48,253 nt of DNA from Candidatus Margulisiibacteriota bacterium (GTDB lineage: Bacteria; Margulisbacteria; Termititenacia; Termititenacales; Termititenacaceae). Under the pieces are notes generated by a model that saw only the letters and a program-made list of their open reading frames with translations, was not told where the DNA came from and ran no database searches. Numbering within the stretch: the first letter of the stretch is position 1; every line of letters starts with the position of its first letter. The stretch is taken from contig JAITIS010000045.1 in NCBI GenBank assembly GCA_031279305.1, forward strand, positions 1 through 48,253, read 5' to 3'. Below, piece after piece: positions 12,008 through 41,080 of this stretch. The position numbers were made by a program, and so were the translations under genes.

Positions 12008-12021
12008 AGTATATAGATGGA

Positions 12022-12867
12022 TTATAACATAGCGTTTTGTAAAAAAGCCAAGCATTCCCGCACCAGATATTCCGGCGCGGAAGCTCCCGCCGTAAGTCCG
12101 ACTTTGCTGTACTGTTTTATCTCCGCCGGCAGTTCCCGGTAATTGTCCACCAGATAAGCCGGACGTCCCTGCGCCTCAACCACTTCTTTCAAACGCGCGG
12201 AGTTAGAGCTGTTGCGCGAGCCGATGATAACCACCGCTTCGGTTTTGGCCGCGATATTGCGCGCTGCCTCCTGTCTGGCCGCGGTCGCATAACAAATATC
12301 TTTCTGCGCCGGTTCGATCAATCCGGGGAAAATCTTTTTTATTTGCGCGATCAAGCCGGCGGTTTCCGTAATATTCAGCGTGGTTTGGGTCAGCGCCGCG
12401 TACTGTTTTTTGTCTCTGGGGATGAGCGGAATATCCGCGCTGTTCTCAATAATCGTAATGTTTTGCGGAGCTTCGCCGTAGACCCCGGCGGCTTCCTCGT
12501 GTTTGTGGTGGCCGATATAAATAATATATACTCCGTGTTTGGTAAATCCCAGCGCTTCCCGGTGCACTTTCTTAACCAGCGGACAGGTCGCGTCGATGAT
12601 TTGCAGATTGCGTTCCGCGGCCTGACGGCGGATATCCGGAGCGACGCCGTGCGCGCTGAAAACAATATGGCCGCCATTCGGAACGGCTTTTAAGTCTTTG
12701 ACAAAAACGACGCCTTTGTCCTGATAATTTTTAATGATCGTTTTGTTGTGGACAATCTCGTTCAAAACGGACAGCTTTAGCTTTTTGGCCAGCGCCTCGT
12801 CCAGCAGGTTCAGCGCATTCTGCACCCCGTTGCAAAATCCGCGTGGTTCGCTCAAAAAAACCTGCAT
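12022..12867 (-). CDS. ispH: 4-hydroxy-3-methylbut-2-enyl diphosphate reductase
   Basis: 281-aa ORF. The three cluster cysteines sit in the expected contexts (GFCNGV, DATCPLV, DICYAT), plus a GSRNSSNS motif. Confidence 0.93.
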   Translation of the reverse strand: MQVFLSEPRGFCNGVQNALNLLDEALAKKLKLSVLNEIVHNKTIIKNYQDKGVVFVKDLKAVPNGGHIVFSAHGVAPDIRRQAAERNLQIIDATCPLVKKVHREALGFTKHGVYIIYIGHHKHEEAAGVYGEAPQNITIIENSADIPLIPRDKKQYAALTQTTLNITETAGLIAQIKKIFPGLIEPAQKDICYATAARQEAARNIAAKTEAVVIIGSRNSSNSARLKEVVEAQGRPAYLVDNYRELPAEIKQYSKVGLTAGASAPEYLVRECLAFLQNAML

Positions 12868-12878
12868 TTTATACGCTT

Positions 12879-14075: not shown

Positions 14076-14089
14076 AGATTATTTTCTCT

Positions 14090-14830
14090 TTACAAGCCAA
14101 AAATTGCCTGCACAATGCCCCAAGTGGTGGCCGGACTTATGCCTCCGGCTACGGTTATTGCATAATTTACATCTGTCATAGTTTTCTGCATCTCCCGAAA
14201 TGCTTTGGTGAGATCTTTGTTATTGGTGGCCAGCGCCAGCAATTCGCCGGCGCGGTTCACATAACGTATTGCTTCAGTGACATTGTCGCTGCCGCCGCAG
14301 ACGGCTTTATATTCGCTGGAAACATCATCCAAAATATTGAGGCTGGCGATCACAGCCTGCAGGCCGTCATCGCTGGGATCAAATGCCTGTTTGAGATTGG
14401 CGGTATGCGCGGCCAGCACAGCCAGCGCGCCGATCAGCTGATCAGACTTGTTATCCGGGGTTATGTTCAGAAAAATATCTCCAGCTTCGATGATCAGTCC
14501 GGTATTATTTTTGCGATGCATTAGCTTATCTAGTCTGATGATCGCGTTGTCCGGCAGAGTGTCGTCATCTAACGCCTCCAAGATAGAAGCCAAATCAAGA
14601 TCCGCTTTGCCTAGCAAAGCCTCGGCATAGATAATCCGGCCTTCCACGCTCCGGTCATCTTTGACCAGAGACAGCGCCTTGTCATATTTAGCTTCGTCGA
14701 GCGCTTGTCTAGCCGCTTCCGTGTTGCTGATATTCGGTTTGGGCGTAGCCCATTGCAGCGCATTGGTCTGACCACAGCCAGACAGACTAAGAGTCAAAAA
14801 TGCCAGCAAAAATAAAAAAATTTTTTTCAT
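14090..14830 (-). CDS. Hypothetical lipoprotein
   Basis: MKKIFLFLLAFLTLSLSGC lipobox. The rest is helical and TPR-like by eye. Start taken at the ATG (14830) rather than the tracked GTG (14842). Confidence 0.6.
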   Translation of the reverse strand: MKKIFLFLLAFLTLSLSGCGQTNALQWATPKPNISNTEAARQALDEAKYDKALSLVKDDRSVEGRIIYAEALLGKADLDLASILEALDDDTLPDNAIIRLDKLMHRKNNTGLIIEAGDIFLNITPDNKSDQLIGALAVLAAHTANLKQAFDPSDDGLQAVIASLNILDDVSSEYKAVCGGSDNVTEAIRYVNRAGELLALATNNKDLTKAFREMQKTMTDVNYAITVAGGISPATTWGIVQAIFGL

Positions 14831-24771: not shown

Positions 24772-25080
24772 ATGATTACCGTTATTGATGTTCATTCCTG
24801 CACAGTGGAGCGCGCCGGCGAGCTGATATTAAATAAAATAAATTACTGCAAGAAAAATGGTTTTAAGGCGCTCAAAATAATTCACGGCCACCGCCGCGGC
24901 ACCGCCCTAAAAGATTTTTTGCCGGAATTGCTGCTCGGCTCAGTCCGGTTTTTTTGCCCGGGTGATCAATTTAATATGTGGTCGGCTGAGGGTCGGGCGG
25001 CAGTCGCGCTGTGCCCGGAACTGTCCAGAGAACAAGATTACCGTTTTGCCAATCCCGGCGTGACGATTGTAGTATTGTGA
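24772..25080 (+). CDS. Stand-alone Smr-domain protein
   Basis: 102-aa ORF. VIDVHSCTVERA...ALKIIHGHRRGTALKDF matches the Smr pattern (D-x-H ... IIHG-x-G...LK). Confidence 0.7.
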   Translation: MITVIDVHSCTVERAGELILNKINYCKKNGFKALKIIHGHRRGTALKDFLPELLLGSVRFFCPGDQFNMWSAEGRAAVALCPELSREQDYRFANPGVTIVVL

Positions 25081-25104: not shown

Positions 25105-25177
25105 GCCGGGATAGCTCAGCTGGTAGAGCAGCGCATTCGTAATGCGCGGGTCGCAGGTTCAATTCCTGTTCCCGGCT
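25105..25177 (+). tRNA. tRNA-Thr (anticodon CGT)
   Basis: Cloverleaf by hand. Acceptor GCCGGGA/TCCCGGC, D arm GCTC-AGCTGGTA-GAGC, anticodon stem GCGCA/TGCGC with loop TTCGTAA, T arm GCAGG-TTCAATT-CCTGT. No encoded CCA. Confidence 0.9.
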
Positions 25178-25180
25178 CTC
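25152..25180 (+). repeat. Direct repeat copy 1: the 3' 26 nt of tRNA-Thr(CGT) plus 3 nt
   Basis: CGCAGGTTCAATTCCTGTTCCCGGCTCTC is identical to 25350-25378. Confidence 0.95.
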
Positions 25181-25349: not shown

Positions 25350-25378
25350 CGCAGGTTCAATTCCTGTTCCCGGCTCTC
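25350..25378 (+). repeat. Direct repeat copy 2 (att-like partial tRNA-Thr 3' end)
   Basis: A perfect 29-nt copy lying 198 nt downstream of copy 1. No matching 5' acceptor strand lies upstream, so this is not a second tRNA. It contains the last six codons and the stop of the ATPase gene on the opposite strand. Confidence 0.9.
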
Positions 25379-28080
25379 GCTTCTTGCGTTTTCTTTTCTT
25401 CTTTTTTCTTGCCTAGCAGCGCGGAATTGAATGAGGCTATCAAGGTCAGGCTTTCGTGCGCGATTAGCGCGATTAGCATATCCACGCTGCGCCAAGCCCG
25501 CCCGACGCTGTTGCTAATCAGATTTCCCGCGAAATTCAGCGCGACGCCAAAACGGTCTGTAACTACACCGTGAATAATCAATATATTAAACAGTGTGGGA
25601 AATACAATATTTTGTATGATTTTACGGGAATACCTCTTGGCCGTCTGGAATATTTCCGTCACTTTCATTAAATGACTGCCGTCCGTAACCAGCGCGTGCG
25701 CGGCGTTGCGGGCCAAGCCTTTGGCGTTCCAGCTGATGCCAAAGTCCGCCGCGGCCAGCGCGCCGCTGTCGTTATTGCCATCGCCGATCATAGTCACGTA
25801 TCGTTTGGCGCCGTCAGGGCCTTTTTGCAATTCGCGGATGAGCGCGGTCTTTTCCTCCGGTTTTAGATTGGAATGCACATTTTCCAGCGGTTTGGCGCCG
25901 CGCGCGCGCAATTCTTTATTGAGCAAATTCACCGCGGCGTAAACCCTCTGATGGCTGTCGCCCGAAGCGATGACTATTTCTTTGCCGGATTTTTGCAAGG
26001 CGATGATGGCGTCCGCGGCGTCCGCGCGCAGGGTTTCCGCGTACTCCAGATAAAGCCGCGGCTGACCGTCTACGGCCATAACCACGGCGTCATCGCTGAT
26101 CCCGGCGGTTTCCGCCATATCCAGCAAGCTGTTTTCGCGCAGATATTTTAGCGAACCGGCTGTGACTGTATGCCGTTGTCCGTTTTGCATATACTCGCCG
26201 CGCGCCGCTTTGCCCAAATCCTGAAAATTCTGGATTTCCGGACTTTGCGCCTGCGGACCGATGTACTCGCGTATTTCCTCGGCTATGGGATGAGTGGCCA
26301 GCAGCTCCAGCGCGTGTAACAGCGGCAGATCCTGCTCCGGCGCGCCGTCCGCTGTGTAATGCAGGCCGCGAATGGAGAGCTGCGCGCTGTCGGTCAGCGT
26401 GTCGGTCTTGTCAAAAACCACGATTCGGGTTTTAGCGGCGCCGGTCAGCGCTTTGGGATCACGCAGAATAATTTTGTCTTTGGCAAAACTATAGATGACC
26501 GCCAGCTTGGCTATGGGGATAGATGTCTGTAGCGCGCAGGGCGTGGTGGCGACCAGCATAGTCAGCGCGTTTTTGATCGCGAACATATTATTGGAAAGCA
26601 CGCCGTACATAAAATAACTACTGGCGCCTAAACACGCCAGCGGGGACCACCATTTACTGAACTGTTCGACCGCGCCTTCCGCTATGCTTTTGTTTTCCAC
26701 CGCCTGCTTGATCTGTTTTTCCATCTGCGCCAGCGCGGAGTCCTCATAGTTTCTAATTACCTGCACAGGCGCTGTGTCGTTCTGAACAATAGCACCAGCC
26801 AGCACAGTTTGGCCGGGCATTTTCAGCACGGGCACGGACTCGCCGGTGATATGCGATTCGAACACGGTCATTTGCTGGAGAGCCTCCGCGTCCACGGGCA
26901 GCTGCTGGCCTTGTTTTAGGATGAGCAGAGACTGCGAGGCGATTTGTTCCGGCGGCGTCAATATCTGCCGGCCTTCCCGCAGTATCAAATATTCTTTGGC
27001 CAGCTGAGAATTGCTCATTACTTCGGCCAGATTCTTTTTGGCTTTATTTTCGGCGTGTTCCTCCATTAGGTGGCTGATATAGCCGTGCATAACCGCCAAA
27101 AAAGCGGACTCGGCCAGTCCCGGCAGGGCGCCGGCGTAGTTTTGCAGCGGTTGCCCCAGACACTCCTCAATAGCAGACGCGTGTATCGGACAGCAGGGTA
27201 TATAATTGCCGCTGAGCAGATTGTAAATAGATACGAAAAACGGCAGGGTGATCGAGAGCGCGATCTGAGTGTCTATCGATACCGTTCTCCGGCGGGCGCC
27301 GCTCAGGAACTGCAAAAAGGCCTCCTCGCGCTCCGGCGTGAGCTGTTTCCGAAAAACCGCCTGCGCCAGCAGGCGCTGTTTATCCAAGGTCAGCTTACTG
27401 GCTCTGGCGATGAATTTCTGCGTGCCGAACAGCGTGTGCTTAAAAAAAAGCTCGGCATTCTGGCTGATCGTATCGCGCAGATAAGCGCTGACCGCATCGG
27501 TCTGGCCGATAGTCAGCCCCAGCTCAAAAAGCGCGGAGTAAATATCCTCATTGTAATTTTGCGCGTTGACTGTGTACGCGCCTGCGCCGGACGGAACGAG
27601 CACCTCTTGTGCTTGCAGCAGATCAAATACCCGCTCCAGCAGATCCGCGTCCTGCACACCGGCGCGCAGGGCAAAAAGTTTTTTGTCCGTGCTGTTTAAT
27701 TCTGGAAATTTAGCCTGTAGTTCGGCCAAAGTGTAGCGCGGCAGCAGCAGTTTTTGCACAGACTCTCTGATCAGAGGAAAACCGTAAAGACTGAGCGCAG
27801 ACAGACCAATAGTGTGTATTAGCCCTCGTATGCCGGCGGAGTGAAATTTGAATAAGGACACGGTCTGCTCTAAGTCTGGCAGGGTTGCGAGGTCAATATC
27901 GTCCAATATTTCAGACGTGTTTCCGCCGAGGGCGCCGGAGCCATAATGGATCAGCAGCGGCAGGGAAAACATAAACGCCGCGTAGCCGATTCCCGCCACG
28001 GCGCCGGCAGTCTTAATTGTTTTTAGAATTTTGGCTTTGGACTGGAGCGTGTCGCTGGATGCTATGACTTTAAGATGCAT
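25357..28080 (-). CDS. Divergent P1B-type (heavy-metal) P-type ATPase with extra N-terminal region
   Basis: 907-aa ORF. TGES (HITGESVPV), TM motif TTPCALQTS where CPC is expected, phosphorylation motif FDKTDTLT, THPIA (HP motif), SGD, MIGDGNNDSGAL. GGAGG lies 5 nt upstream of the ATG at 28080. Confidence 0.8.
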   Translation of the reverse strand: MHLKVIASSDTLQSKAKILKTIKTAGAVAGIGYAAFMFSLPLLIHYGSGALGGNTSEILDDIDLATLPDLEQTVSLFKFHSAGIRGLIHTIGLSALSLYGFPLIRESVQKLLLPRYTLAELQAKFPELNSTDKKLFALRAGVQDADLLERVFDLLQAQEVLVPSGAGAYTVNAQNYNEDIYSALFELGLTIGQTDAVSAYLRDTISQNAELFFKHTLFGTQKFIARASKLTLDKQRLLAQAVFRKQLTPEREEAFLQFLSGARRRTVSIDTQIALSITLPFFVSIYNLLSGNYIPCCPIHASAIEECLGQPLQNYAGALPGLAESAFLAVMHGYISHLMEEHAENKAKKNLAEVMSNSQLAKEYLILREGRQILTPPEQIASQSLLILKQGQQLPVDAEALQQMTVFESHITGESVPVLKMPGQTVLAGAIVQNDTAPVQVIRNYEDSALAQMEKQIKQAVENKSIAEGAVEQFSKWWSPLACLGASSYFMYGVLSNNMFAIKNALTMLVATTPCALQTSIPIAKLAVIYSFAKDKIILRDPKALTGAAKTRIVVFDKTDTLTDSAQLSIRGLHYTADGAPEQDLPLLHALELLATHPIAEEIREYIGPQAQSPEIQNFQDLGKAARGEYMQNGQRHTVTAGSLKYLRENSLLDMAETAGISDDAVVMAVDGQPRLYLEYAETLRADAADAIIALQKSGKEIVIASGDSHQRVYAAVNLLNKELRARGAKPLENVHSNLKPEEKTALIRELQKGPDGAKRYVTMIGDGNNDSGALAAADFGISWNAKGLARNAAHALVTDGSHLMKVTEIFQTAKRYSRKIIQNIVFPTLFNILIIHGVVTDRFGVALNFAGNLISNSVGRAWRSVDMLIALIAHESLTLIASFNSALLGKKKEEKKTQEARAGNRN

Positions 28081-28099
28081 GCTTTCCTCCCATATATTT

Positions 28100-28118
28100 A
28101 TTGAAATTGTTATTCAAT
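28100..28118. promoter_or_regulatory. 19-bp dyad ATTGAAATTGTTATTCAAT (Fur-family-box-like) in the ATPase 5' leader
   Basis: ATTGA-N9-TCAAT inverted repeat. It is embedded in a longer 29-bp imperfect palindrome, TTATTGAAATTGTTATTCAATTGCAATAA (22/29 self-complementary). It matches 15/19 with the site at 31340-31358. Confidence 0.45.
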
Positions 28119-28126
28119 TGCAATAA

Positions 28127-28155
28127 AGTGTACATTAAATGAAAACGATTGTCAA
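28127..28155 (-). promoter_or_regulatory. Sigma-70-type promoter of the ATPase gene
   Basis: Minus strand TTGACA (28155-28150), 17 nt, TACACT (28132-28127). Confidence 0.45.
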
Positions 28156-28220
28156 TAGTCTGAACTGTTAAATTTGAAAAAAGTGGGCGGGTAAAAGACA
28201 TAACCGTTGCTTTCAAAATA

Positions 28221-29741
28221 TTAAGCTGTCACTAATTCTTCTTCTTTTGTTTCTTCTTTTTTTTCTTTTTGGCGCTGCTGTCCTCTTTTTTGCTGTTCCT
28301 GTTTTTCCTTCTGCTGCTTGATATAGTCGCTCCAGACGCCGTACAACCCTTCTAAATCCTCGTCGGTTTCTTCTAGTTTTTTATAGCGGCCAAAAAGCAG
28401 ACCGAGCAGCTTGCTGAGATTTTCTTTTTGCACATCGCGCTCGTGGGCGATCCGGCTCAACACCGAAAAAGAAATGATCGGCTGGCTGCGCTCGGTTTTG
28501 CCGTCGCTCTTAATATCGCCGAACACCATTTTTTCGCCGTTCTTTCCGGTCAGCGTGGTTTTTTCACCGGATAGCGTGGAAAAAGCCAGCTGGATTTGCG
28601 CGGGTTTTTGCATAATTTTTTCCCCGCCGCCGATGTTCGGGGCTGCGGGAGCGGCCTGAGGCATTGCTTTGGAATTTTGACCTTGGATAATATTCATAAG
28701 CCCGGCAGTCAATTCTTTGCCGCTGCTGGCTAGGGACAGAGCGCCGGACAGCGCAGCCTGTGAGCCGGCGGCTATGGCTGGAGCGGCAGGCGCGGTTTGC
28801 GTCATAACTGGAGAGCCGCTTGTTCCAGCCGCAGCCGTTTGTCCCGAGGCGGATTGCGCCGCGGAGGCGTTGTTGACCGCCGTTGTCCCCCCGGTCAAGG
28901 CAGAATAAGATACAGCGCTGGCAGGCTGCTGCGCGGCTGAAGAAACATTGCTTGAATTGGACAATGAACTGCTGGCACCGGTGTCTGTCCTGGCGGCTGA
29001 GCTGTGACCGGTGTTGGTCGAGGACGCTCCTTTGCCTGCGCTGGCGGTAGAGTGACCGTCAGAACTTTGCGCTAGGCTTTGCTTTTGCGCCGCCAAGACA
29101 GTATTAGTTCCGGATTTGTCCGCAGATTTGGCCTGATTGACGGATAGATTGTTTTGGCCTTCGTCTTGAGCTTTGGGTTTGCTAAGCAGGGTGTTGTTCA
29201 GAGCGTAGTTGTTCTGCTCGTTTCTTATTTCCGCTTTGCCCGCCGCGCGTTCAGGAGTAGGAATACTTACGCTTTTGGCCATAACCGGTTCTTTTTGGCC
29301 TTCATTGTTATTGCCGTTGCTTCTGACACTGTTTGTTGTTTCTGCCGCGCGCGCATTGCCTGCCGGAGCAGCGACGGTCACCGCTCTGGCCGTGCCTGCG
29401 CCGGGAGAGGGCGCGCTGGTCTGTCGGTTGACCGCGGCGGACTGCGGTTGAACTGGGGCATTTGCCGGCGCACCGCCGGCGTCATAAGCGGCTGCGCTGT
29501 TGTAAGCGTAAGTGACGGAACTGCTATAGCTGACAGAACTGCTGGATGATCCCGGAGTTTCAATAGTGAGCGCCATCTGGCCGGTGCAGATGGGACATTG
29601 GCAGCCCGGCGGATGCCCGCCCGTGCTGCTGCCTACAGAGCCGGCGGTAGGCTGCGCGGAATAATAATTCGTGGAGTTATTTACTCCGCTAGAACTGTAA
29701 CTGTTATAGGTCGGCGCTACTGAATTAATACCGTTAATCAA
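28221..29741 (-). CDS. Hypothetical low-complexity protein (Ser/Ala/Gly/Thr/Asn/Gln-rich) with one CxCxxC and a charged C-terminal tail
   Basis: 506-aa ORF. TTG start with GGAGG 6 nt upstream. GCQCPICTG at residues 46-54 (29586-29603). About 330 aa of low complexity, then a more ordinary ~100-aa segment and a KQQKEKQEQQKRGQQRQKEKKEETKEEE tail. No signal peptide or TM seen and no family recognised. Confidence 0.6.
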   Translation of the reverse strand: MINGINSVAPTYNSYSSSGVNNSTNYYSAQPTAGSVGSSTGGHPPGCQCPICTGQMALTIETPGSSSSSVSYSSSVTYAYNSAAAYDAGGAPANAPVQPQSAAVNRQTSAPSPGAGTARAVTVAAPAGNARAAETTNSVRSNGNNNEGQKEPVMAKSVSIPTPERAAGKAEIRNEQNNYALNNTLLSKPKAQDEGQNNLSVNQAKSADKSGTNTVLAAQKQSLAQSSDGHSTASAGKGASSTNTGHSSAARTDTGASSSLSNSSNVSSAAQQPASAVSYSALTGGTTAVNNASAAQSASGQTAAAGTSGSPVMTQTAPAAPAIAAGSQAALSGALSLASSGKELTAGLMNIIQGQNSKAMPQAAPAAPNIGGGEKIMQKPAQIQLAFSTLSGEKTTLTGKNGEKMVFGDIKSDGKTERSQPIISFSVLSRIAHERDVQKENLSKLLGLLFGRYKKLEETDEDLEGLYGVWSDYIKQQKEKQEQQKRGQQRQKEKKEETKEEELVTA

Positions 29742-29863
29742 GGCTGACCTCCTGCGGCGCTTATAAATTGATACGCCTCGGCAATAATGCGCTGATATAT
29801 GTCTGTGAGAGGATTCAACGGTCTTATCGGCTCGGCGGACAGGGCGATTACTTTGCTGGTCAT
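29738..29863 (-). CDS. Candidate 41-codon ORF bridging two genes
   Basis: Below the ORF-track size cutoff. MTSKVIALSAEPIRPLNPLTDIYQRIIAEAYQFISAAGGQP. Its ATG overlaps the upstream TGA (ATGA, 29860-29863). Its TGA overlaps the downstream TTG start (TTGA, 29738-29741). It fills the whole 118-nt gap. Confidence 0.4.
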   Translation of the reverse strand: MTSKVIALSAEPIRPLNPLTDIYQRIIAEAYQFISAAGGQP

Positions 29864-30291
29864 TGTACAGTCTCCTCTTTGAGGATAATTTTATTCTGGT
29901 TTAGTTTGCGGATATAGGCTGGCATTTTTTCCACTATAGCCAGTGTTTTGACCTGCGCGTCGCGCAAGAGCGTGATTTTTTTGTCCATCTCGTCGAGAAA
30001 TGTTTCCAGTATTTCTACTTTGTCGTTAAAGATATCCGTATTTTTGGACAAGATCGCCAAAGCGTGATAGACCGTCTCAAAAGAATTGGGATCTTTGGCC
30101 AGCAGTTTGCTGTATTTTTCATTGATTTCCTTGGTCTGCTCGACCTGCAGATTGATATGATCGATCCTGCTCCACAGTTTTTCATTTTTGCGGATGGCAT
30201 CCAGAGATTTGAGTTGATCCTTGAGCTGTTCGATGATTTTATTCAAAGCGCTCTGGCTATTCTCCGTATTTTCTTTAAGCTCTGTGCTCAT
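29860..30291 (-). CDS. Hypothetical coiled-coil protein (143 aa)
   Basis: Heptad-like, Lys/Glu/Leu/Ile-rich sequence without hydrophobic segments. The ATG at 30291 is 11 nt from GGAG. The tracked TTG at 30300 is only 2 nt from it. No family recognised. Confidence 0.6.
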   Translation of the reverse strand: MSTELKENTENSQSALNKIIEQLKDQLKSLDAIRKNEKLWSRIDHINLQVEQTKEINEKYSKLLAKDPNSFETVYHALAILSKNTDIFNDKVEILETFLDEMDKKITLLRDAQVKTLAIVEKMPAYIRKLNQNKIILKEETVQ

Positions 30292-30309
30292 TTGTGACAA
30301 CGCTCCTGT

Positions 30310-31275
30310 TTATTGGCCAAAATTTCTAATCCTGACAAAATTTCCGGCAACCTCATTAAGAATGATCTGCGCGTCGGTGATCACCCGGCGCTCATTGTCC
30401 GGCCGCATTTTTTCGCTGAGCAGAACATCGCTGTGCGCCAGATCATATTGTCCGGCCAGCGTGTCTAACAGGGTGTAAGCGGAGTTCAGATCAGACTGCG
30501 TGGCGTCCTGCCCGTGATCGTTGGTGTAGAGGCGGTAGCCTTCCAACTGGCGGAGTTTGGCCTGGAAACTGGCGGAGCGCATATCCGCTTCGGAGATGGA
30601 TGCCGCATTGCCATCCGTGCCGGCAATCTCCCGCAGGAGACGCAGTTCCCGGTCTGGATTTTCGATAACCCAAGAAAACAGGACGTTAGTCCGGTTGTAA
30701 AGCTGCAAATTATACAAAGTCTCCTGAGTTTTACGGGATAGGCTGCTCAGACTGGGATTGGCCTGAAAAGAACCGTTTTTAGGAATGTTATAAGCTCTGG
30801 TGATAACGTGATGCGGCGGCTCATTGGCGGCAAATCTTATATTTTTAAACTCCTCTATTTTAGTAAAATCAACGCCTAACAACAATTCTTCAAGAACAAT
30901 TTTGCAATTGCTAAAATTAGCCGCGCCTATCCTCGCTTTTATGCTGGACAGCATTCTGTAAGCGGCGGTCAAGTCGTAAAAAAAGACCAAATCGGCGTGC
31001 CACGGACAGTTGTCATTCTTATATATATGCCTGCCTTGCAGGGAATTAAGAATAGCTGTTGCTCTCTCTCGATTGGCACTATAATCTTCTATACTGGCTT
31101 TGACTCTATTATCTTCAAAATTGTCGGGATTGTCTCCGTTGAGCGCCACAAGTTCACGTAAAAGCTGCAGTTCTAGCTGCGGATTGTCGATGACCACGGA
31201 TTTAGCCATACGAGGCTCCTCCCGGTTGAGTACAAAATTAGGCATCGTGGTAATATTAGGCGTGTATTCTGACAT
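30310..31275 (-). CDS. Hypothetical protein made of two copies of an unrecognised ~85-aa repeat
   Basis: VIDNPQLELQLLRELVAL...LNSLQGRHIYKNDN...DLTAAYRMLSSI aligns with VIENPDRELRLLREIAGT...LRQLEGYRLYTNDH...DLNSAYTLLDTL. ATG at 31275 (GGGAG 5 nt upstream). An alternative ATG at 31209 (MAKSVVIDNP) has an even stronger GGGAGGAG. Confidence 0.6.
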   Translation of the reverse strand: MSEYTPNITTMPNFVLNREEPRMAKSVVIDNPQLELQLLRELVALNGDNPDNFEDNRVKASIEDYSANRERATAILNSLQGRHIYKNDNCPWHADLVFFYDLTAAYRMLSSIKARIGAANFSNCKIVLEELLLGVDFTKIEEFKNIRFAANEPPHHVITRAYNIPKNGSFQANPSLSSLSRKTQETLYNLQLYNRTNVLFSWVIENPDRELRLLREIAGTDGNAASISEADMRSASFQAKLRQLEGYRLYTNDHGQDATQSDLNSAYTLLDTLAGQYDLAHSDVLLSEKMRPDNERRVITDAQIILNEVAGNFVRIRNFGQ

Positions 31276-31328
31276 AACTTCTCCCTTCATAACTAAACTA
31301 TTGCAACTGCTTGCCAATTGCGGCAGGT

Positions 31329-31357
31329 ATAATACGCTAATTGAAATTATATGTCAA
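31329..31357 (-). promoter_or_regulatory. Sigma-70-type promoter of the orphan-gene chain
   Basis: Minus strand TTGACA (31357-31352), 17 nt, TATTAT (31334-31329), between the fur stop and the 321-aa gene. Confidence 0.5.
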
Positions 31358-31358
31358 T
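31340..31358. promoter_or_regulatory. 19-bp dyad ATTGAAATTATATGTCAAT (Fur-family-box-like) over the -35/spacer
   Basis: Same ATTGA-N9-TCAAT architecture as 28100-28118. The adjacent TGTCAATAG 9-mer also recurs at 28150-28158. Confidence 0.45.
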
Positions 31359-31409
31359 AGATTTTTGCGCGCTGGCCGGCGCAGAAAAACTGGGAGAATA
31401 ATTCAAGGA

Positions 31410-31847
31410 TTAAAACGTCGTTTTCTGGCAGTCTCGGCACAGTCCGCGCACTTTGGCGCCGAAACGCACCGGCTTAAATTTATGTTTGGCCGCCAGTTTT
31501 TTTTGCAGTCTGATGATCTCGCTGTTGTCATACTCGATGATCAGCCCGCATTTGGTGCAGATCAGGTGGCCGTGGTTTTGATGCCGGTACGCGTGTTCAA
31601 AACGAAACACGCCGTCCAATCCGTGGATGCGCGCGGCCAAGCCTGCTTTTTCGATGATCTGCATCGTGCGGAAAGTGGAGGAGTAGCTGACTTTAGGATG
31701 TTTTTTCTTCACCAGATCGTGCAGTTCTTCTATGGAAAAATGCCCTTCGGCATTGAGGAAAACCTCCAGCACATCATAACGCTGGTGCGTATTGCGCAGG
31801 GAGTTTTTGACAATATAATCCCGCAGAATTTTTATCTCTTTCTGCAT
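31410..31847 (-). CDS. Fur-family metalloregulator
   Basis: 145-aa ORF. N-terminal winged-helix part (RNTHQRYDVLEVFL), HQNHGHLICTKCG and GLCRDC (two CxxC pairs). The sub-type (Fur/Zur/PerR/Mur) cannot be decided by eye. Confidence 0.85.
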   Translation of the reverse strand: MQKEIKILRDYIVKNSLRNTHQRYDVLEVFLNAEGHFSIEELHDLVKKKHPKVSYSSTFRTMQIIEKAGLAARIHGLDGVFRFEHAYRHQNHGHLICTKCGLIIEYDNSEIIRLQKKLAAKHKFKPVRFGAKVRGLCRDCQKTTF

Positions 31848-34420: not shown

Positions 34421-35824
34421 ATGACCAAAAACACAGGCGTCCTGCTGCATATTTCTTCTTTGCCCGGCGTTTATCCGGTAGGGGATTTTGGCCCGACCGC
34501 CTACGCTCTGGCAGATATTCTCGCGGAACAAAAAATTAAATACTGGCAGCTGCTGCCGCTGGGCCCGGCCGATCCGGAATATTTTTATTCTCCTTACACG
34601 ATGTTTTCCTCTTTTGCTCTGGGTGAGCTGTACGCCAGCCTGGAGCTGCTGGTGGAGCGGGAATTGCTTACGCCGGAAGAGGCCGCTCCTTGTCCATCCG
34701 TCGCGGCAGACTATCCGCAGGCGGAAAAACTGAAAAATGATCTGCTGCGCCGAGCTTACGCGCGTTTCCGCCCGGATGCGGATTATGACCGTTTCAGGCA
34801 GGAACAGTCTTTCTGGCTGGAGGCCTATGCAGAATTTCAGGCTCTGCGCCGCGCCGCAGGCCGGCCGTGGACTCAATGGCGGACAGATAAACCAGACCGC
34901 GCGCTGGTCGAATACGAGATGTTTGTGCAGTATATTCTTTTTGCCCAGTGGCAGACCTTAAAACAGTACGCGAATAATAAAGGAATAAAAATAATTGGCG
35001 ATCTGCCGCTTTTCACGGCGCACAACAGCGCGGATGTCTGGGCTTTCCCGCGCTATTTCAAATTGCGTTCGGACAAATCAATGGCGGTTACCGCCGGCGT
35101 GCCGCCGGATTATTTTAACGCGCAGGGGCAGGTCTGGCAGCTGCCGCTCTACAACTGGGACGCGCTGCAAGAGGATGATTTTTCTTGGTGGCGCTCCCGC
35201 ATCTGGTCAGCCCTGCAAAAATACGATCTGCTCCGGCTGGATCATTTTCGGGGTTTAGAAGCCTGCTATGAAATACCGGGCGGCGATCCGCACGGGTTGA
35301 ACGGCCGCTGGGTCAAAACTCCCGGCGCGGAGCTTTTGGCCGCGGTCAAAAAAGATTTTCCGCAAATGCCGCTGATCGCGGAAGATTTGGGTGTGATCAC
35401 GCCGGAAGTCCGCCGGCTGCGCGCGGATTTCGGTCTGCCCGGTATGCGGGTTGGATTGCTGGATTTTATTGATTATCCCAGACTGCGCGGACAGAGCGAG
35501 CACAATATCAAACAGCACGCGCCGGACAGCATATTGTATTCCACGACGCACGATTTTGACACGGTGCTAGGCTGGTATGCCACGGCTCCGCCGGAGGCCA
35601 GAGAGTATTTTCACCGCGAGATCGGCGAGCCGCGTCCGGAAAATTATCTGCGCTACTGGCTCTCTTCGCCGGCGGACACAGTGATTTTCCCGGCGCAGGA
35701 TATTCTGGGGTTGGGCAGCGCGGCGCGGCTGAATTTTCCCGGCACCAGCGGCGCGGGACGCAACTGGGTCTGGCGGCTGCAGGCGGAGGAACCGCTAAAA
35801 CTGAATATCGTCAATCCATTTTAA
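34421..35824 (+). CDS. malQ: 4-alpha-glucanotransferase (amylomaltase, GH77)
   Basis: GVLLHISSLPG...GDFGP, YWQLLPLGP, LRLDHFRG and IAEDLG are typical MalQ motifs. Confidence 0.9.
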   Translation: MTKNTGVLLHISSLPGVYPVGDFGPTAYALADILAEQKIKYWQLLPLGPADPEYFYSPYTMFSSFALGELYASLELLVERELLTPEEAAPCPSVAADYPQAEKLKNDLLRRAYARFRPDADYDRFRQEQSFWLEAYAEFQALRRAAGRPWTQWRTDKPDRALVEYEMFVQYILFAQWQTLKQYANNKGIKIIGDLPLFTAHNSADVWAFPRYFKLRSDKSMAVTAGVPPDYFNAQGQVWQLPLYNWDALQEDDFSWWRSRIWSALQKYDLLRLDHFRGLEACYEIPGGDPHGLNGRWVKTPGAELLAAVKKDFPQMPLIAEDLGVITPEVRRLRADFGLPGMRVGLLDFIDYPRLRGQSEHNIKQHAPDSILYSTTHDFDTVLGWYATAPPEAREYFHREIGEPRPENYLRYWLSSPADTVIFPAQDILGLGSAARLNFPGTSGAGRNWVWRLQAEEPLKLNIVNPF

Positions 35825-37147
35825 GTACAGCTTATTGATCCTGTTGTATTCCCGCAGATGTTTTAATTCCAGATTCAACAACGGCACTAGGAGAATATGC
35901 CGCATCTGTTCTTTCAAGTCTTCAGGGATAGCGTTAGGTTTGTACAAAATATGCTCCAGATTTTGAAATATGCTGCTGTCGTATGGTTTGCCCTGATTCT
36001 CATAGTATGTATTATCGCTCTGGGCTTCACCGTTTTTATTGATCAAAGTCAACAGTTTTAGATCGCGGTAAGCCTTTGGCGGATTGTGCAGATACAAATT
36101 TTCTTCTTCCAGAATCATATCTTCCGGATAAATGCACATAATGGCGTTCTTGAGATTTTCTAGAAAAAAATAATCCGCGCCGCTGATCCGCGCGCCGCTG
36201 ATGTCCGGAATATCGCCGACATATATTTTACGCCCGTATTTTTCCTCATAATGATTCATTTTTTTCAGCAGGCTGTATAAAGTTTTGGCGCGAGGATTGT
36301 CTATAACTGGACTGATTCTGTTTTGGAGAGTTTTGAACAAAAAGAAATTTCTGCGTATGTCATTCAGGATCAGGTCATTGTACTGGTCGACAGGCAAAAT
36401 GCGCTGTAAATCCAGCAGCGTATTTTTGAGATCAGTCAAATTTGTTTCAGGATGAAAGTGCAAGCCGACGCCTTTTCTGGTCGGATCGATGTCTGCTATT
36501 TTTTCTAACTGGGTGCGTGCTTTATCCGATAGCCGGCCGGGCGTATAAACATAGTAATAACGCGCCACTTTGTCCGCCAACTCTCTTAATATCATTTCGA
36601 TGACCACCAGATGATTTTTGATATTCCGGACGGAATTGGACGGCGAGTCTCCGATAAAATATTGGGAAAATGGACTGTTTATATCCTGCGCGGCTTCTTT
36701 GGCTTCATTGAAGTCCAGCCCGTAAATATATCGATCCCGTGCTATCCGCTGTTTATTAAACTTTTCTTTTTTTTGCGCGGTGCTGGTGATTTCCTGCGCA
36801 ATGCTGAAAAGTGAACCCAGATAGTCGCTGTGCTGTTTGCGGGTTTTTTCGGACTCAACAAAAAACTCTTTTTGCAGTTTCCGCCAGCTCTCTCCGGTCA
36901 CCGACTCCGCGCAGATGATCCGGCAGACATAATCCCGATAATCGTCAATGTCATTGGTTTTGTCGTTATTGGCCAGCAGCTTGAGCGCAAAAGGATCATC
37001 GCCCTCTTGCAGGGCGTGCCAGAATATCCGTTTTAGCGTCGGCAGATATTCGGCGGGGTATTTGTACCCGCGCAGCCTGTCTTCCAACTCGTCCAGACAA
37101 ACCTGCTGGGTGTCGCTGGTTTTTTCTTGATAACTGCGTATGGCCAT
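35795..37147 (-). CDS. Hypothetical protein (450 aa), no recognised family
   Basis: Long AT-rich ORF (21/60 G+C in 36001-36060) with GAGAGG/GGAAGG upstream of the ATG at 37147. Divergent from copA. Its 3' end overlaps the malQ 3' end by 30 nt. Confidence 0.55.
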   Translation of the reverse strand: MAIRSYQEKTSDTQQVCLDELEDRLRGYKYPAEYLPTLKRIFWHALQEGDDPFALKLLANNDKTNDIDDYRDYVCRIICAESVTGESWRKLQKEFFVESEKTRKQHSDYLGSLFSIAQEITSTAQKKEKFNKQRIARDRYIYGLDFNEAKEAAQDINSPFSQYFIGDSPSNSVRNIKNHLVVIEMILRELADKVARYYYVYTPGRLSDKARTQLEKIADIDPTRKGVGLHFHPETNLTDLKNTLLDLQRILPVDQYNDLILNDIRRNFFLFKTLQNRISPVIDNPRAKTLYSLLKKMNHYEEKYGRKIYVGDIPDISGARISGADYFFLENLKNAIMCIYPEDMILEEENLYLHNPPKAYRDLKLLTLINKNGEAQSDNTYYENQGKPYDSSIFQNLEHILYKPNAIPEDLKEQMRHILLVPLLNLELKHLREYNRINKLYLKWIDDIQF

Positions 37148-37226: not shown

Positions 37227-39437
37227 ATGCGCGCTGTATTTCAGATCGGCGGTATGTCCTGCGCGGCCTGCGCCAGACATATCGAAAAAGCTATCGGTCG
37301 GTTGTCCGGCGTGGCGAGCGTTTTTGTCAATCTGGCTGCGGAACAGGCCACGGTTGTTTATGACGAAAATCGTTTGGACGCCGCGCGAATCGCCGCCGCA
37401 GTCAGTCAGGCCGGCTATCGGGCAGATGCGGCAAAAGACGCGGACGGTAAAAATTTGTTTCCGCTCTGGCCGGACTTTTTGGCCGCGGCGTTTTTTACCC
37501 TGCCTCTTTTCTATATCGCAATGGCGCCGATGCTCGGTCTGCCCCTGCCCGCGCTGCTCGATCCGGTCGGGCGCGCCCGGACTTACGCTCTGCTGGAGCT
37601 GGCGCTGACCCTGCCGGTAGTGCTGGCCGGGCGCCGTTTTTACACCGGTGGTTTTCGGGCGCTGCTGGTCTTCAGTCCCAATATGGATTCCCTGATTGCC
37701 GTGGGCACTTCCGCGGCGCTGATCTACAGCTTATACAATGTATATGTAGTTTTGCAGGGTGGTTATCACGCGGCGCATTCACTGTATTTTGAGACGGCGG
37801 CTCTGATCATCACGCTGGTGCTTTTGGGCAAGGCCCTGGAGACGTTTTCCAAAAAGCGCGCCGGCGCGGCGCTGAAAACCCTGCTGCAGCTAGCTCCCGC
37901 GACAGCGTTGGTTTGGCGCGATGATACGGAAATTACCCTGCCGCTGGCGGAGGTAAAAATAGGCGATATTCTGGTTGTCAAACCCGGCGCGAAAATCCCG
38001 GTGGACGGCACGGTGCTGGATGGACAAACCGCGGTGGACGAATCTATGCTCACCGGCGAAAGCGCGCCGGCGGATAAAAAAGCGGGCGATCCGGTTTATG
38101 CCGCCACTTTGAACACTTACGGAGTCTTGCGCTTCCGCGCGGAAAAAATCGGCGCCGGCACGGCTCTGGCGCAGATTATTAGACTAGTCGAAGAGGCGCA
38201 AAGTTCACGCGCGCCTATTGCCAGACTGGCGGACACGGTTTCCGGCTATTTTGTGCCGGCAGTCTGCCTGATCGCCGCGCTGGCCGGGATCGGCTGGTAT
38301 GCCGCCGGAGCCGGTCTGGAGTTTGCGCTCACTATATTTATCTCTGTGCTGGTCATTGCCTGTCCCTGCGCGCTCGGTCTGGCTACTCCTATGGCGGTGC
38401 TGGCGGCCTCTGGCAGAGGCGCGGAGTGCGGCATACTGATCAAAAGCGGCGCGGCGCTGGAGGCCTTGAGCGCGGTGGACACGGTGGTTTTGGATAAGAC
38501 AGGCACGCTGACCTCAGGTCGTCCAGCAGTGACAGGCATCTGGCCGGCAGAGGGCGTCGAGCCAGATCAGCTCCTGCAGCTGGCTGCGGCGGCGGAAAAA
38601 AATTCAGAGCATCCGCTCGGACAGGCTGTGGCGCGCTATGCAGAACAAAAAAAACTGCCGCCGCTGGCTGCGGCGGATTTTGCCGCGCTGGCCGGCAGCG
38701 GCGTGGAAGCCAAAGTTTACACTGTGTCTGTTCTGCTCGGCAGCCGGGATTTGCTGGAGAAACGCGGGATCAAGCCCGGCGGCGCCGCGCGCGCCGCGAA
38801 ATTGGCCGCGGCAGGCCGGACGCCGGTATTCGCGGCGGTGAATGGCAAATATGCCGGGATCATCGCCCTAGCGGATGAATTAAAACCGGATAGCCGGCCA
38901 GCTGTGGAGTATCTACAAAAAGCCGGCGTAAATGTCGTGATGCTCACCGGTGACAATGCCCGCACCGCCGCCGCGGTGGCGGCTCAGGCCGGCATCACCG
39001 ATGTTTTGGCCGGCGTCCTGCCGCAGGACAAAGCCGCGGAAATAAAAAAACTCCAGTCCGCCGGCCGCCGGGTGGCTATGGTGGGCGACGGTATCAATGA
39101 TGCTCCCGCTCTGGCGCAGGCCGATGTAGGCGTGGCCATAGGCACCGGCACGGATGTGGCGGTAGAGTCGGCGGATGTTGTCCTGATGCGCGGCGAGCTT
39201 TGGGGCGCGCCGGCCGCGCTGGATTTGAGCCGGCGGACTATGCGCAATATCAAGCAAAATCTCTGCTGGGCTTTTGGCTACAATATGCTTGGCCTGCCTG
39301 CCGCCGCTGGACTGCTGCATATCTGGGGCGGCCCGCTGCTGACACCGGCGCTGGCGGCGGCGGCAATGAGTTTTAGTTCGCTGTCTGTTGTGGCTAACGC
39401 TCTGCGCCTGCGCCGCTGCCGGCCGGCAAGACGATAA
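37227..39437 (+). CDS. copA: Copper-translocating P1B-type ATPase
   Basis: 736-aa ORF. N-terminal HMA domain [50 protein letters not shown]. Confidence 0.92.
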
Positions 39438-39439
39438 GA

Positions 39440-41080
39440 CTATACGGAAATATAACCGCCGGTCAGTTCTTGTTCCGCCTTTTGACTGATTTCCTGCAGC
39501 AATTTTTGGGTTTCCGGTGAAATATCGCGCAGAGCTTTGCGCAGGACGCGGATCACATTGCGTCTGTAGGCTAACGGCGCATACCACCAACGCGCGCCAA
39601 TTTCTCTGTATAACGCGGGCAGATCCCGCGCCGCGTCGGTTTTGATAAAAGCCAGGGCGACTAGCGCGTCGTTTATCAGCGGGCGGTTTTCCGGCGTGAG
39701 TCTGGTATGCATCAGCAGGTTTTTTATTTCTGCGTAGCGCGCGGAAAACTCCAGACAGTACCAGATAAAAGTATTTTGGATATATTCCGCCTGCAGTTCC
39801 TGCAGCAGTTTTTGCAGAACCACGGCTTTGCCCAGATCGGCGGGATTTTCCAGCGCGGCGATGTAGGCGGCTAACAGCTCTTGTTTGTCGTCCGTCTGTA
39901 TGGCCAGCCGGAGAATTATGTCTCCGGCCTCCGCCAGCGTGCGCAGTTTGACCCGGCTGTGCTGTTCCTCCGGATCTTTGGGAACGCGTGGCGGGGTTTT
40001 GCGGCGGCCAAAATTAGTCTGCTTTTTGAGCAGAGTGGAGAGATCGAGTATATTCCAGTAAAGGGTGTGCTCAACGGCGGCCTGTTTTTCCGCGGCGGTA
40101 AAATTATTTTCTTTTATTTTGCTATGTTTAGGCGCTCTGTCCGGGGCATTGTAGCCGTCTAAGTTGAACCCGTTGGTCGGATCAGTTTGAAAACCGCCTA
40201 ACAGGCTGGCGCCCAGCCGCAGATAATCCCGGTGCTGAATAATGCGCCGTGGTTTTTGCGCCGCCGGTTTTTCCTGTTCCATAGTCGCTTTGCGCGTGTC
40301 CAGATGTCTCCGGCGCGGCCTGACCGGCGCGGCGTCTAATTCAGCCAGCGCTTTTTCTCTGGCGTATTTTTCCGCCGCCTCTTTTTGCCGCAGAGTTGGC
40401 GTGCGCTTTAGGATATCAAATGCCGCCTGCAATTCCGCCGAGGCAAATTTTTCTCCGTCGTGAAAATCGATGTAATTTATTTCCCAGGCCAGCGCGTATT
40501 CGTCAGGGTCGGTTTCGCTGTAGTCCGGCGCATAGCCGTGCCGGTCGATAAAATCCTGCGCGGCTTTGATCAGATCCGCGCCGTATATTTCCGTATGCGA
40601 CGGCGTGTTATGCAGGAGGCTCTGCCAGAGCTCCAGTTGTTTGGCGGTTTTAAATTTAGGAGTTTTGTACCTATTCAATGCCTCGATACGTTTGGCCAGC
40701 GCGCTCTCGGCTTCCTCTTCCGTCGTTATATTTTGCTTGTACAGCACGCGCGGCTTGTAACCGTAAACCCGCACAAAATCCTGAAATTCCCGCAGCAGCG
40801 CGGCGTTTTGTTTCTCTATGTAGCTCGGAGTTTCGGCGCTGATGCGGTCATATATTTCTTGTTCCGCAGTGTTCAGCTCTATTTTGCCGGTCTTGATATC
40901 TTTGAGCAGTATCCAGAAATTGCGTTCAGACTGGCTGGTTTTATTGTGGTCGTCGTCATAGTAGCGGGGAAAACCCTCCGCGGCGCGGGTGAATTCTTCC
41001 GCCGCGCGCAGTTTCTCTGTCAGAGAAAGTTTTTTCCAGCTGGTTTGTTCTTTTTTATCGGAAATAATTTTGGCCAGCAT
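39440..41080 (-). CDS. Hypothetical protein (546 aa) with three N-terminal helicase-associated-like repeats
   Basis: Three ~70-aa units have cores AEEFTRAAEGFPRY, FQDFVRVYGYKPRV and AQDFIDRHGYAPDY. The units end in ISAETPS, LLHNTPS and ILKRTPT. I do not recognise the C-terminal ~300 aa. Confidence 0.55.
   Translation of the reverse strand: MLAKIISDKKEQTSWKKLSLTEKLRAAEEFTRAAEGFPRYYDDDHNKTSQSERNFWILLKDIKTGKIELNTAEQEIYDRISAETPSYIEKQNAALLREFQDFVRVYGYKPRVLYKQNITTEEEAESALAKRIEALNRYKTPKFKTAKQLELWQSLLHNTPSHTEIYGADLIKAAQDFIDRHGYAPDYSETDPDEYALAWEINYIDFHDGEKFASAELQAAFDILKRTPTLRQKEAAEKYAREKALAELDAAPVRPRRRHLDTRKATMEQEKPAAQKPRRIIQHRDYLRLGASLLGGFQTDPTNGFNLDGYNAPDRAPKHSKIKENNFTAAEKQAAVEHTLYWNILDLSTLLKKQTNFGRRKTPPRVPKDPEEQHSRVKLRTLAEAGDIILRLAIQTDDKQELLAAYIAALENPADLGKAVVLQKLLQELQAEYIQNTFIWYCLEFSARYAEIKNLLMHTRLTPENRPLINDALVALAFIKTDAARDLPALYREIGARWWYAPLAYRRNVIRVLRKALRDISPETQKLLQEISQKAEQELTGGYISV

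Follow-up and report, generated by a model that had tools for sequence, protein, structure and literature searches.

A conserved, unannotated gene module around a divergent P1B-type ATPase in Margulisbacteria, probably an undescribed metal-handling system

The contig JAITIS010000045.1 (assembly GCA_031279305.1; 48,253 nucleotides, nt), which was analysed over its whole length and is hereafter called the window, is from a termite-gut margulisbacterium related to Candidatus Termititenax. Our analyses of six open reading frames (ORFs) on its minus strand, coding for a Fur-family regulator, four soluble proteins (of 321, 143, about 40 and 506 amino acids, aa) and a 907-aa P1B-type ATPase, indicate that this is, as far as sequence can tell, a real, conserved and unannotated module comprising a new branch of P1B ATPases and four new protein families. 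It is probably an undescribed metal-handling system, of a general kind that is already known, namely the metal-regulated P1B operon with accessory proteins. In the reading that we prefer, to which we give a probability of roughly 45%, it would be a self-contained metal-pump module controlled by a repressor, the soluble set supplying in trans the cytoplasmic metal-binding and scaffold functions that the pump lacks. P1B pumps are the main movers of transition metals in bacteria, and little is known about partners that organise pumps or, outside copper, about how metal is delivered to pumps without a metal-binding domain of their own. The module offers three things in this respect: an unclassified P1B branch, four new families, and evidence that the 321-, 143- and 506-aa proteins travel as a unit.

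All six ORFs were found where a preliminary description of this DNA had placed them, and its reading as a metal-handling module of orphan genes is supported, since neither family matches for the orphans nor a loss of synteny with the ATPase turned up. The loci used for comparison include those of Candidatus Termititenax aidoneus (L001) and T. persephonae (L005 and L008), contigs from metagenomes or metagenome-assembled genomes (MAGs; L003/L009, L010 and L012), a more distant MAG (L002), and four loci with distant relatives of the 321-aa protein (L013, L015, L017 and L018). Close relatives of the window are referred to as the Termititenax group, and the protein libraries searched were Pfam, NCBIfam, PHROGs and PADLOC.

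The divergent ATPase and its soluble partners

The 907-aa ATPase (25357..28080, minus strand) matches PF00122 (E=2e-28), PF00702 (E=7e-21) and TIGR01525 (E=1.4e-86), in the last case with 291.6 bits, under the model's 346-bit cut-off. Its catalytic core is present, with TGES (ITGESV), DKTDT, HP (THPIAEE) and GDGNND, and the pump appears competent because the phosphorylated Asp, TGE, GDGxND and HP are all kept. At the position of the DKTGT Gly, most Termititenax members have Asp and L002 has Asn; the L015 ATPase has the canonical DKTGT, and the motif family-wide is DKT[D/N/G]T. Transmembrane helix 4 (TM4) carries TPC, read as T-P-C-A/G, in all seven family members, and the TM6 motif varies among HESLT, HEGLT, HESLS and HESVS around an invariant His-Glu. 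The motif set that had been called non-canonical (TPC, DKTDT, HESLT) is thus borne out. In a multiple alignment, TPC falls on the SPC of P0023 and HE on the HE of P1B-4-like proteins, and neither is aligned with the Met/Ser, MSxST or GDxG motifs of CopA-, CopB- and ZntA-like proteins. Another motif, CCxxH (C296, C297 and H300, in the pattern I[P/S]CC[P/I]xH), is conserved in the M1-M2 loop, including in L015; this loop would face outward, given the standard P1B topology. Four of the five Cys of the protein lie in conserved motifs. The N-terminal extension measures ~330 aa, including a ~150-aa insert between MB and M1, and a further ~22-aa insert occupies the loop between TM5 and TM6. The protein contains no HMA or His-rich metal-binding domain, and its alignment to CopA structures begins at the MB'/M1 region.

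Eight orthologues score 865-1326 bits against the window ATPase, and the next best match among 5.8e9 proteins scores 165 bits; no exact copy is on record. The L002 protein is 48% identical to it and the 778-aa protein of L015 reaches 237 bits. Since CopA-, ZntA-, CopB- and P1B-4-like proteins resemble it to a nearly equal degree (120-180 bits), the family is an isolated P1B branch.

By its motifs this branch lies nearest to the P1B-4 pumps, which handle Fe2+, Co2+, Zn2+ or Ni2+ and, like our ATPase, have no cytoplasmic HMA or His-rich domain (PfeT, PmtA, FrvA, CtpD/CtpJ, CoaT); we know of no P1B-4 pump with partner proteins such as those described below. P1B-4 is defined by SPC in TM4 and HEGxT (HEGST) in TM6 (PMC7012047). 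TPC in all members is one residue off the first of these, and from the second only His-Glu is common, the rest of the motif varying (HE[S/G]L[T/S] versus HEGST). The family also differs from P1B-4 in the DKT[D/N]T that stands for DKTGT in its Termititenax members, in its long N-terminal extension, in the CCxxH exit-side loop and in the TM5-TM6 insert. As to the P1B-5 subgroup, to which hemerythrin belongs, Pfam detects no hemerythrin domain in the ATPase. The TPC motif invites a comparison with P1B-5 (Nia) pumps, defined by PCP in TM4 (PMC13460109), which is ruled out because no Pro follows the Cys. P1B-6 FezB is defined by D[Y/F]SCA in TM4 and HNxxT in TM6 (bioRxiv 10.1101/2020.01.10.902569), and the presence of TPC and HE[S/G] instead rules out membership of this subgroup; comparison with the published P1B-7 motif (CSC) failed as well. 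These motif tests support the proposed distinction of the module from both fez/FezB and PfeT/FrvA.

The 321-aa protein (30310..31275, minus strand) founds a new family. It is soluble, with no hydrophobic or transmembrane segment, and is built of two homologous halves: the two-copy repeat seen earlier was recovered as residues 26-120 versus 201-281 (31% identity, pairwise E=2e-9). His155-His156 and several Asp/Glu are invariant or nearly so in the family. Only 13 close relatives occur among 5.8e9 clustered proteins; those with names come from T. aidoneus, T. persephonae and Margulisbacteria MAGs, and the remainder are JGI metagenome proteins. Scanning one genome per GTDB species returned five loci, all in Margulisiibacteriota, a hidden Markov model (HMM) search of 1.84e9 cluster representatives gave 8 real matches, and two metagenome scans for relatives yielded nothing and one 1.3-kb contig, respectively. 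As regards close relatives, the 321-aa and ATPase families are thus tightly restricted by lineage.

The family matches nothing in the four libraries. An AlphaFold2 model built with close relatives only was uninformative (predicted local distance difference test score, pLDDT, 64), and adding distant relatives gave a confident one (pLDDT 88.8, predicted template-modelling score, pTM, 0.88). Foldseek searches of this model against PDB and BFVD gave best E values of 0.05-0.14 with TM-scores of ~0.08-0.16, and profile searches of PDB sequences came back empty; a likeness to the T-fold, with GTP cyclohydrolase IB and urate oxidase on top, was rejected (E>0.1, TM-score ~0.13, root-mean-square deviation 17 Å). 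The fold check thus paired a confident model with no structural neighbour in either database, and the 321-aa protein has a new predicted fold. The statement that the middle four proteins belong to no recognised family likewise stands, with zero matches for them in the four HMM libraries or in PDB sequence searches.

The 143-aa protein (29860..30291, minus strand), rich in Lys, Leu and Glu, is soluble, has no transmembrane segment and no PDB or family match; a Pfam scan gave weak, sub-threshold matches to coiled-coil families. It is conserved across loci, with a core KDPxSFxTVYxAxxILSKNxDxFNDKxEV, at 63-76% identity among Termititenax-type loci and 34% to a 135-aa protein in the equal position in L015; shorter relatives of 102-106 aa occur in L017 and L018. 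The 41-codon ORF next to it (29738..29863, minus strand) is 56% identical to its L002 equivalent, and its product has neither a family match nor a hydrophobic segment. An ORF of 37-42 codons with a common residue pattern is found in each of the seven loci examined, always in the identical position, so that it probably encodes a real small protein; public gene callers annotate it in L009, L010, L011 and L012, and it is absent from L013, L015, L017 and L018.

The 506-aa protein (28221..29741, minus strand) consists of an N-terminal knuckle, a low-complexity region, a C-terminal domain and a tail. Composition (A 15%, S 14%, G 9%) and Cys positions agree with its initial portrayal as a Ser/Ala/Gly-rich protein with a single CxCxxC: the knuckle HxxxCxCxxC (H43, C47, C49 and C52) holds its only three Cys. 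A variable low-complexity region of ~320 aa, rich in Ala, Ser, Gly and Thr, is followed by a highly conserved C-terminal domain of ~75 aa, kept in L013, L015, L017 and both L018 copies, and by a Lys/Glu/Gln-rich tail. There is no transmembrane segment, and no match to any family of the four libraries. The N-terminal knuckle of the family reads GHPxGCxCPxCxG, with a four-Cys version in L002 and L011, and in the nine 506-like members examined every Cys (2-6 per protein) sits in small N-terminal motifs, be it HPxGCxCPxC, GCPCGGKGCPVC, CDC three times, or CC. The 506-like protein of L017 adds HDHHHDH, together with HPPGCGCPTH and GDGCPVCTG. In L015, the 476-aa counterpart (11510-12940) has three tandem units of ~48 aa, each with AKKCDCTEKRTTSLGG, and its six Cys form three CxC pairs in place of the one knuckle.

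Conservation of the gene order and contexts of the soluble set

The order 321, 143, ~40, ~506, ATPase is kept in L001, L003/L009, L010, L012 and L002, and L006 and L011 show the identical order as far as their contigs reach. Start/stop overlaps or short gaps link the genes, and the junctions described for the window could be read from its sequence: 18 nt with GGAG between the 321-aa stop and the 143-aa start, an ATGA overlap of the 143-aa stop with the 41-codon ORF, and a TTGA overlap of that ORF with the 506-aa start. In L011 (sample 3300042618), two tandem copies of the 321 gene (334-1284 and 1345-2343; 316 and 332 aa) precede genes of 142, 38 and 526 aa. The T. persephonae module is split over two contigs, with feoA divergently upstream of the 321 gene on L005 (230-463) and the ATPase and the C-terminal end of the 506-like gene on L008, and one of its junctions looks chimeric: on L005 (BGZO01000046, 1930-3045), the 143-aa homologue breaks off near residue 112 and runs on in frame into a membrane domain that by eye is FeoB-like. 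This fusion is probably an assembly chimera from single-cell data, though it may reflect a genuine rearrangement. In L002, feoAB lies 4 kb from the module.

The most telling locus is the divergent L015 (GC 39%), where a 357-aa 321-like protein, the 135-aa protein and the 476-aa protein precede the 778-aa ATPase in unchanged order, although these proteins are only 25-35% identical to their window counterparts. Its ATPase carries TPC, DKTGT, HES and the CCxxH loop. The synteny of the orphans with the ATPase, anticipated in the preliminary description, is therefore kept in every Termititenax-type locus that is long enough and beyond them in L015. As L015 has neither the small ORF nor the ~150-aa ATPase insert, these two features co-occur only in the Termititenax group.

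The other distant loci place the soluble proteins in different surroundings. L013 has only a pair of 320 and 361 aa, of which the latter contains CC and keeps the C-terminal domain of the family, and no ATPase, metal-transport or Cys/His-motif gene within 10 kb. The order in L017 is a small signal-like HxCxxCxxxH protein, 321-like, 143-like and 506-like proteins, and a 197-aa His-rich membrane protein (12472-13065; HHHHYH N-terminus, weak sub-threshold match to DUF4396), which sits where the ATPase is found elsewhere. L018 presents a similar small protein and the three soluble genes, a second, convergent pair of 321-like and 506-like genes without a 143-like one (12467-14501, minus strand), neighbouring genes for an outer-membrane protein, ZnuA and ABC-3, and a ZIP gene 6 kb off. 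The small proteins upstream of 321-like genes in these two loci (L017 9665-9937; L018 9686-9955 and, on the minus strand, 9392-9766) measure 89-124 aa and share a hydrophobic N-terminus, H-x-C-x-x-C-x-x-x-H and a C-terminal (F/Y)(F/L)LRAPP. Pfam recognises none of them, and in the distant versions of the module they may act as an additional metal-binding component that is exported. Metal-transport or Cys/His-motif genes flank the soluble set in the window, L001-L003, L005, L006, L015, L017 and L018. These differing contexts in L013, L015, L017 and L018 suggest that the 321/143/506 set is a portable unit that associates with different metal-transport genes.

Promoters, candidate operators and the Fur-family regulator

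Two promoters had been predicted, and they are indeed the two best sigma-70-like sites on the minus strand of the region: P1 (TTGACA-17-TATTAT, 31329..31357) for the 321-aa gene and P2 (TTGACA-17-TACACT, 28127..28155) for the ATPase gene. Each has a dyad of the form ATTGA-N9-TCAAT, which has two occurrences in 48 kb, both of them here, where shuffled sequences would give 0.05: ATTGACATATAATTTCAAT, a candidate operator over the -35 and spacer of P1 (31340..31358, minus strand), and ATTGAATAACAATTTCAAT, downstream of the -10 of P2. They had been described as the same 19-bp dyad; related dyads are present at both promoters but they are not identical, with 15 of 19 bases in common. Alignment of the loci revealed two further candidate operators, also on the minus strand. 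Just 3' of the P1 -10 lies TTGGCAAGCAGTTGCAA (31301..31317), a 6-5-6 element that reads TTGCAA-TGCTA-TTGCA(A/G/T) in L001, L002, L003, L006 and L010 and TTGCAG-TTCTA-TTGCAG in L005. Its counterpart 3' of the P2 -10 is ATTGCAATTGAATAACAATTTCAAT (28100..28124), in the sister species a 12-1-12 palindrome, ATTGCAATTGAA-T-TTCAATTGCAAT.

P1 and P2, including their spacers, show striking conservation in comparisons of species at ~55-65% protein identity, and the conserved promoter and operator elements are confined to these two sites. The extended -35 element TATTGACAT is kept at P1 in all related loci (six-locus alignment) and is also present at P2 of other loci and at the L015 promoter, which starts with TATTGACAT and has a 9-bp inverted repeat containing GCTATTGCA. 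By eye, no common ATTGCA-type operator was seen upstream of the L017 and L018 modules. P2 is kept in L001, L003, L006 and L008 and absent in L002 and L015, where the ATPase gene follows directly after the 506-like gene after gaps of 26 and 11 nt, respectively; the older arrangement is thus probably a single operon. Candidate operators that overlap the spacer or lie 3' of the -10 of strong promoters imply that a single DNA-binding protein acts as repressor, and the adjacent Fur-family protein is the obvious candidate and most likely the repressor of both P1 and P2.

This 145-aa regulator (31410..31847, minus strand) matches PF01475 over residues 14-127 (E=1.9e-26) and carries two CxxC pairs, C97/C100 and C137/C140. 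Among its 21 Fur-family matches in PDB, the best is Helicobacter pylori Fur (2XIG, 69 bits), followed by 5FD5/5FD6, which we take to be Mur-like, and then by Mycobacterium tuberculosis Zur (2O03, 61 bits; actinobacterial Zur structures score 55-61 bits); PerR (2FE3) reaches 53.5 bits and Nur (3EYY) 40 bits. The NCBIfam equivalogs all remain far under their cut-offs, the best with 81 versus 200 bits, and the Fur models (81 and 74 bits) rank above PerR (56 bits). The regulator is thus a Fur-family member that these scores do not allow to assign to Fur, PerR, Zur or Nur, and the label "Fur" fixes neither its metal nor its signal. Orthologues of it precede the module in L001, L003 and L006; the claimed linkage with a fur gene accordingly stands for the window and these three loci and lapses in L002, L015, L017 and L018. 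In T. aidoneus (L001, 7194-9707), an AbiEi/AbiEii pair is found ahead of fur, and two genes of 44 aa and 199 aa (P-loop), possibly a toxin-antitoxin pair, are inserted between fur and the module.

The sister-locus P1 element resembles the Nur box of Streptomyces coelicolor, tTGCaa-N5-ttGCAA (PMC2691836), in its identical 6-5-6 layout (TTGCAA-N5-TTGCA(A/G/T)), a likeness that we regard as a lead only, since the P2 element is a 12-1-12 palindrome and not 6-5-6. A Nur-type nickel regulator, suggested by TTGCAA-N5-TTGCAA, was rejected in view of this different P2 palindrome and of Nur being only the 17th best PDB match; clear counterparts of the Nur Ni-site residues His70, His72 and His126 were not apparent in the regulator by eye, without alignment.

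Proposed function, known counterparts and genomic surroundings

If the module is a repressor-controlled pump with soluble partners, the 907-aa protein would be an active P1B pump whose membrane metal site, formed by the Cys of TPC in TM4 and His-Glu in TM6, would be P1B-4-like. The 321-aa, 143-aa, ~40-aa and 506-aa proteins would be cytoplasmic, given that none has a hydrophobic segment, and would work with the pump, a co-function suggested by the gene order kept in L015 despite such low identity. We infer that the 506-aa protein binds metal through a knuckle of the form (H/C)x3-4-CxC-xx-(C/H), its disordered region and C-terminal domain acting as a tether or scaffold, and that the structured 321-aa and 143-aa proteins would make up the core to which it attaches. 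These partners could capture or buffer metal and pass it to the pump, or else hold or stabilise the pump in a PacL-like manner. In the Termititenax group, one repressor would shut both promoters via the ATTGCA/TTGCAA-type operators. As for the metal, the fur gene and the nearby feoAB or feoA suggest Fe2+, and the His/Cys motifs and the Znu/ZIP neighbours suggest Zn2+, Ni2+ or Co2+; Fe2+ is our first guess, with the other three nearly as likely.

The closest parallels for such an arrangement are found in two known systems. In Streptococcus suis, perR lies 162 bp upstream of the P1B-4 Fe2+ exporter gene pmtA (PMC7012047), and the Fur-family gene directly upstream of our operon recalls this layout. 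In mycobacteria, P1B pumps require PacL proteins, operon-encoded scaffolds or chaperones that contain a disordered region and, optionally, a motif for metal binding (PMC13460109); in the PacL1-CtpC, PacL2-CtpG and PacL3-CtpV pairs, the partners are encoded upstream and stabilise or cluster the pumps (PMC13460109). As in these systems, the partner genes of the module precede that of a P1B ATPase, and one partner combines a disordered stretch with a short putative metal motif. In contrast, the PacL partners belong to DUF1490, are small, carry Glu/Ala repeats and are anchored in the membrane, and ours are four soluble proteins without transmembrane segment or DUF1490 match, much larger and including one new globular fold. 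By motif the module thus comes closest to P1B-4 pumps and by operon logic to PacL-Ctp, and it is, to judge by the sequences, a member of neither. If the partners bind and deliver metal or scaffold the pump, they would be a second, independent solution beside mycobacterial PacL and would give a handle on the metal economy of uncultured host-associated Margulisbacteria.

Several observations weigh against this view of a pump and its partners. Some concern the regulation: the regulator matches no equivalog above cut-off, its gene is unlinked in four loci (L002, L015, L017 and L018), and the candidate operators, based on ATTGCA/TTGCAA, are not canonical Fur boxes of the GATAAT type. If the repressor were a classical metal-loaded Fur, the operon would be on under metal shortage, which does not suit an exporter meant for detoxification and would better fit import, a ferrosome-like storage or a PerR switch. 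Others concern the pump, whose DKTGT motif has lost its Gly to Asp or Asn among Termititenax-group members and whose P1B-4 likeness is one of motifs only, the overall similarity being equal across P1B groups. Finally, in L013, L017 and L018 no ATPase gene is found within 10 kb of the soluble set, so that its proteins are not obligate pump accessories.

Acquisition of metal under shortage would resolve the regulatory difficulty, and we consider it unlikely but the first alternative to weigh. A metal-loaded repressor of Fur or Zur type would control an ATPase that imports metal via the CCxxH loop, and the Cys/His protein and its partners would distribute the metal in the cytoplasm. Operators in the spacer and 3' of the -10 correspond to the classical layout of Fur-family repression, the L018 soluble set adjoins the uptake genes for ZnuA, ABC-3 and ZIP, feoAB or feoA is near the L002 and L005 modules, and CCxxH is kept in the extracytoplasmic M1-M2 loop even in L015. 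A cluster expressed under metal shortage also exists around HmtA in Pseudomonas aeruginosa (PA2434-PA2439, Fur-family (Zur) regulon; PMC4542158). It resembles the module in having a P-type ATPase gene among uncharacterised or non-transport genes, but its neighbours are HflC/HflK-like, with no homology to the accompanying genes of the window. Against an importer stands the transport direction of known P1B pumps: to our knowledge, all those structurally characterised export from the cytoplasm and P1B import would be exceptional. Moreover, many Zur proteins carry extra sensing-site Cys, and our regulator has only four, structural ones.

The portability of the soluble set leads to another proposal, speculative and equally unlikely in our estimation. 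The 321/143/506 proteins might be a cytoplasmic scaffold or condensate for storage or buffering, founded on a new fold, that plugs into transporters differing by lineage (the new P1B ATPases here, a His-rich membrane protein or Znu/ZIP systems in others) and, together with the pump, would make a depot or hand-off station in Termititenax. If a storage device, it would be a new kind of bacterial metal depot, functionally like ferrosomes or effluxosomes and unrelated to both.

A ferrosome-like storage proper, in which the ATPase would sit in an internal membrane and fill a compartment with Fe2+ while the soluble proteins coat, nucleate, position or condense around it, appears rather more doubtful. 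The fez operon combines a P1B ATPase with small partners, is up-regulated at low iron and commonly has Fur and Feo neighbours (bioRxiv 10.1101/2020.01.10.902569), and it shares with the module lineage-restricted partners, the link with Fur and Feo and an occurrence in anaerobes; our Fur-family gene and repression-type operator layout would fit low-iron induction, feo is close by, and condensation could be driven by the long disordered protein and its charged tail. Nevertheless, the ATPase lacks both P1B-6 signatures of FezB, and the four partners all lack transmembrane helices, GxxxG membrane segments and HMA domains, in contrast with the small membrane proteins FezA, FezC (which carries an HMA domain) and other partners of FezB. 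Membership in the fez ferrosome systems was rejected on these grounds, and the Znu/ZIP neighbours and His-rich motifs seen in the distant loci argue against iron in particular.

Efflux of iron under peroxide stress, as in PerR-PmtA/PfeT systems, with oxidants derepressing a pump that expels Fe2+ and limits Fenton chemistry, assisted by the partners, is improbable. It would reconcile the repressor layout with an exporter, it agrees with the P1B-4-like pump site, and the streptococcal perR directly upstream of pmtA provides a precedent. The regulator, in turn, scores higher with Fur than with PerR, by 81 and 74 to 56 bits in NCBIfam and by 69 to 53.5 bits in PDB. It also has Glu at the position aligned by eye with Asp104 of Bacillus subtilis PerR, a residue considered significant in PerR, and its candidate operators are unlike the PerR box.

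That the soluble proteins are mere neighbours of the pump under a common regulator, with a structural, cytoskeletal or symbiosis role unrelated to metal transport, is the least probable of these explanations: the ATPase-free sets of three loci, the lack of family or fold match and the separate ATPase promoter of the Termititenax group speak for it, but gene order withstands the divergence of L015, L002 and L015 have no separate ATPase promoter, the P1 and P2 operators are related, Cys/His motifs recur in all 506-like proteins, and metal-transport or Cys/His-motif genes flank the soluble set in nine loci, L013 being the one without them.

A phage or defence origin of the module was also considered and rejected, as no notable PHROGs or PADLOC matches were found. 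The glycine-cleavage genes beyond the module are syntenic with L001 and L009, which suggests that it belongs to the stable chromosomal backbone. Just 3' of the ATPase, a small ORF with a CdiA_C domain occurs in L001 (16815-17162), L009 (8465-8701) and L012 (6769-7152). In the window, a tRNA-Thr(CGT) gene (25105-25178) lies directly downstream of the ATPase gene on the opposite (plus) strand, and a small Smr-domain ORF (24772-25080, plus strand) is located near the ATPase 3' end. Farther away, a second P1B ATPase gene (37227-39437, plus strand) encodes a 736-aa protein of canonical CopA-like type with an N-terminal HMA domain, so that the organism appears to possess an ordinary copper-type pump beside the divergent one. 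The two minus-strand ORFs that flank it (35795-37147, 450 aa, and 39440-41080, 546 aa) have no Pfam match at E<=1e-5, and the stretch at 38-40 kb is unusually GC-rich, with a GC content of 0.61 versus ~0.51 for the window.

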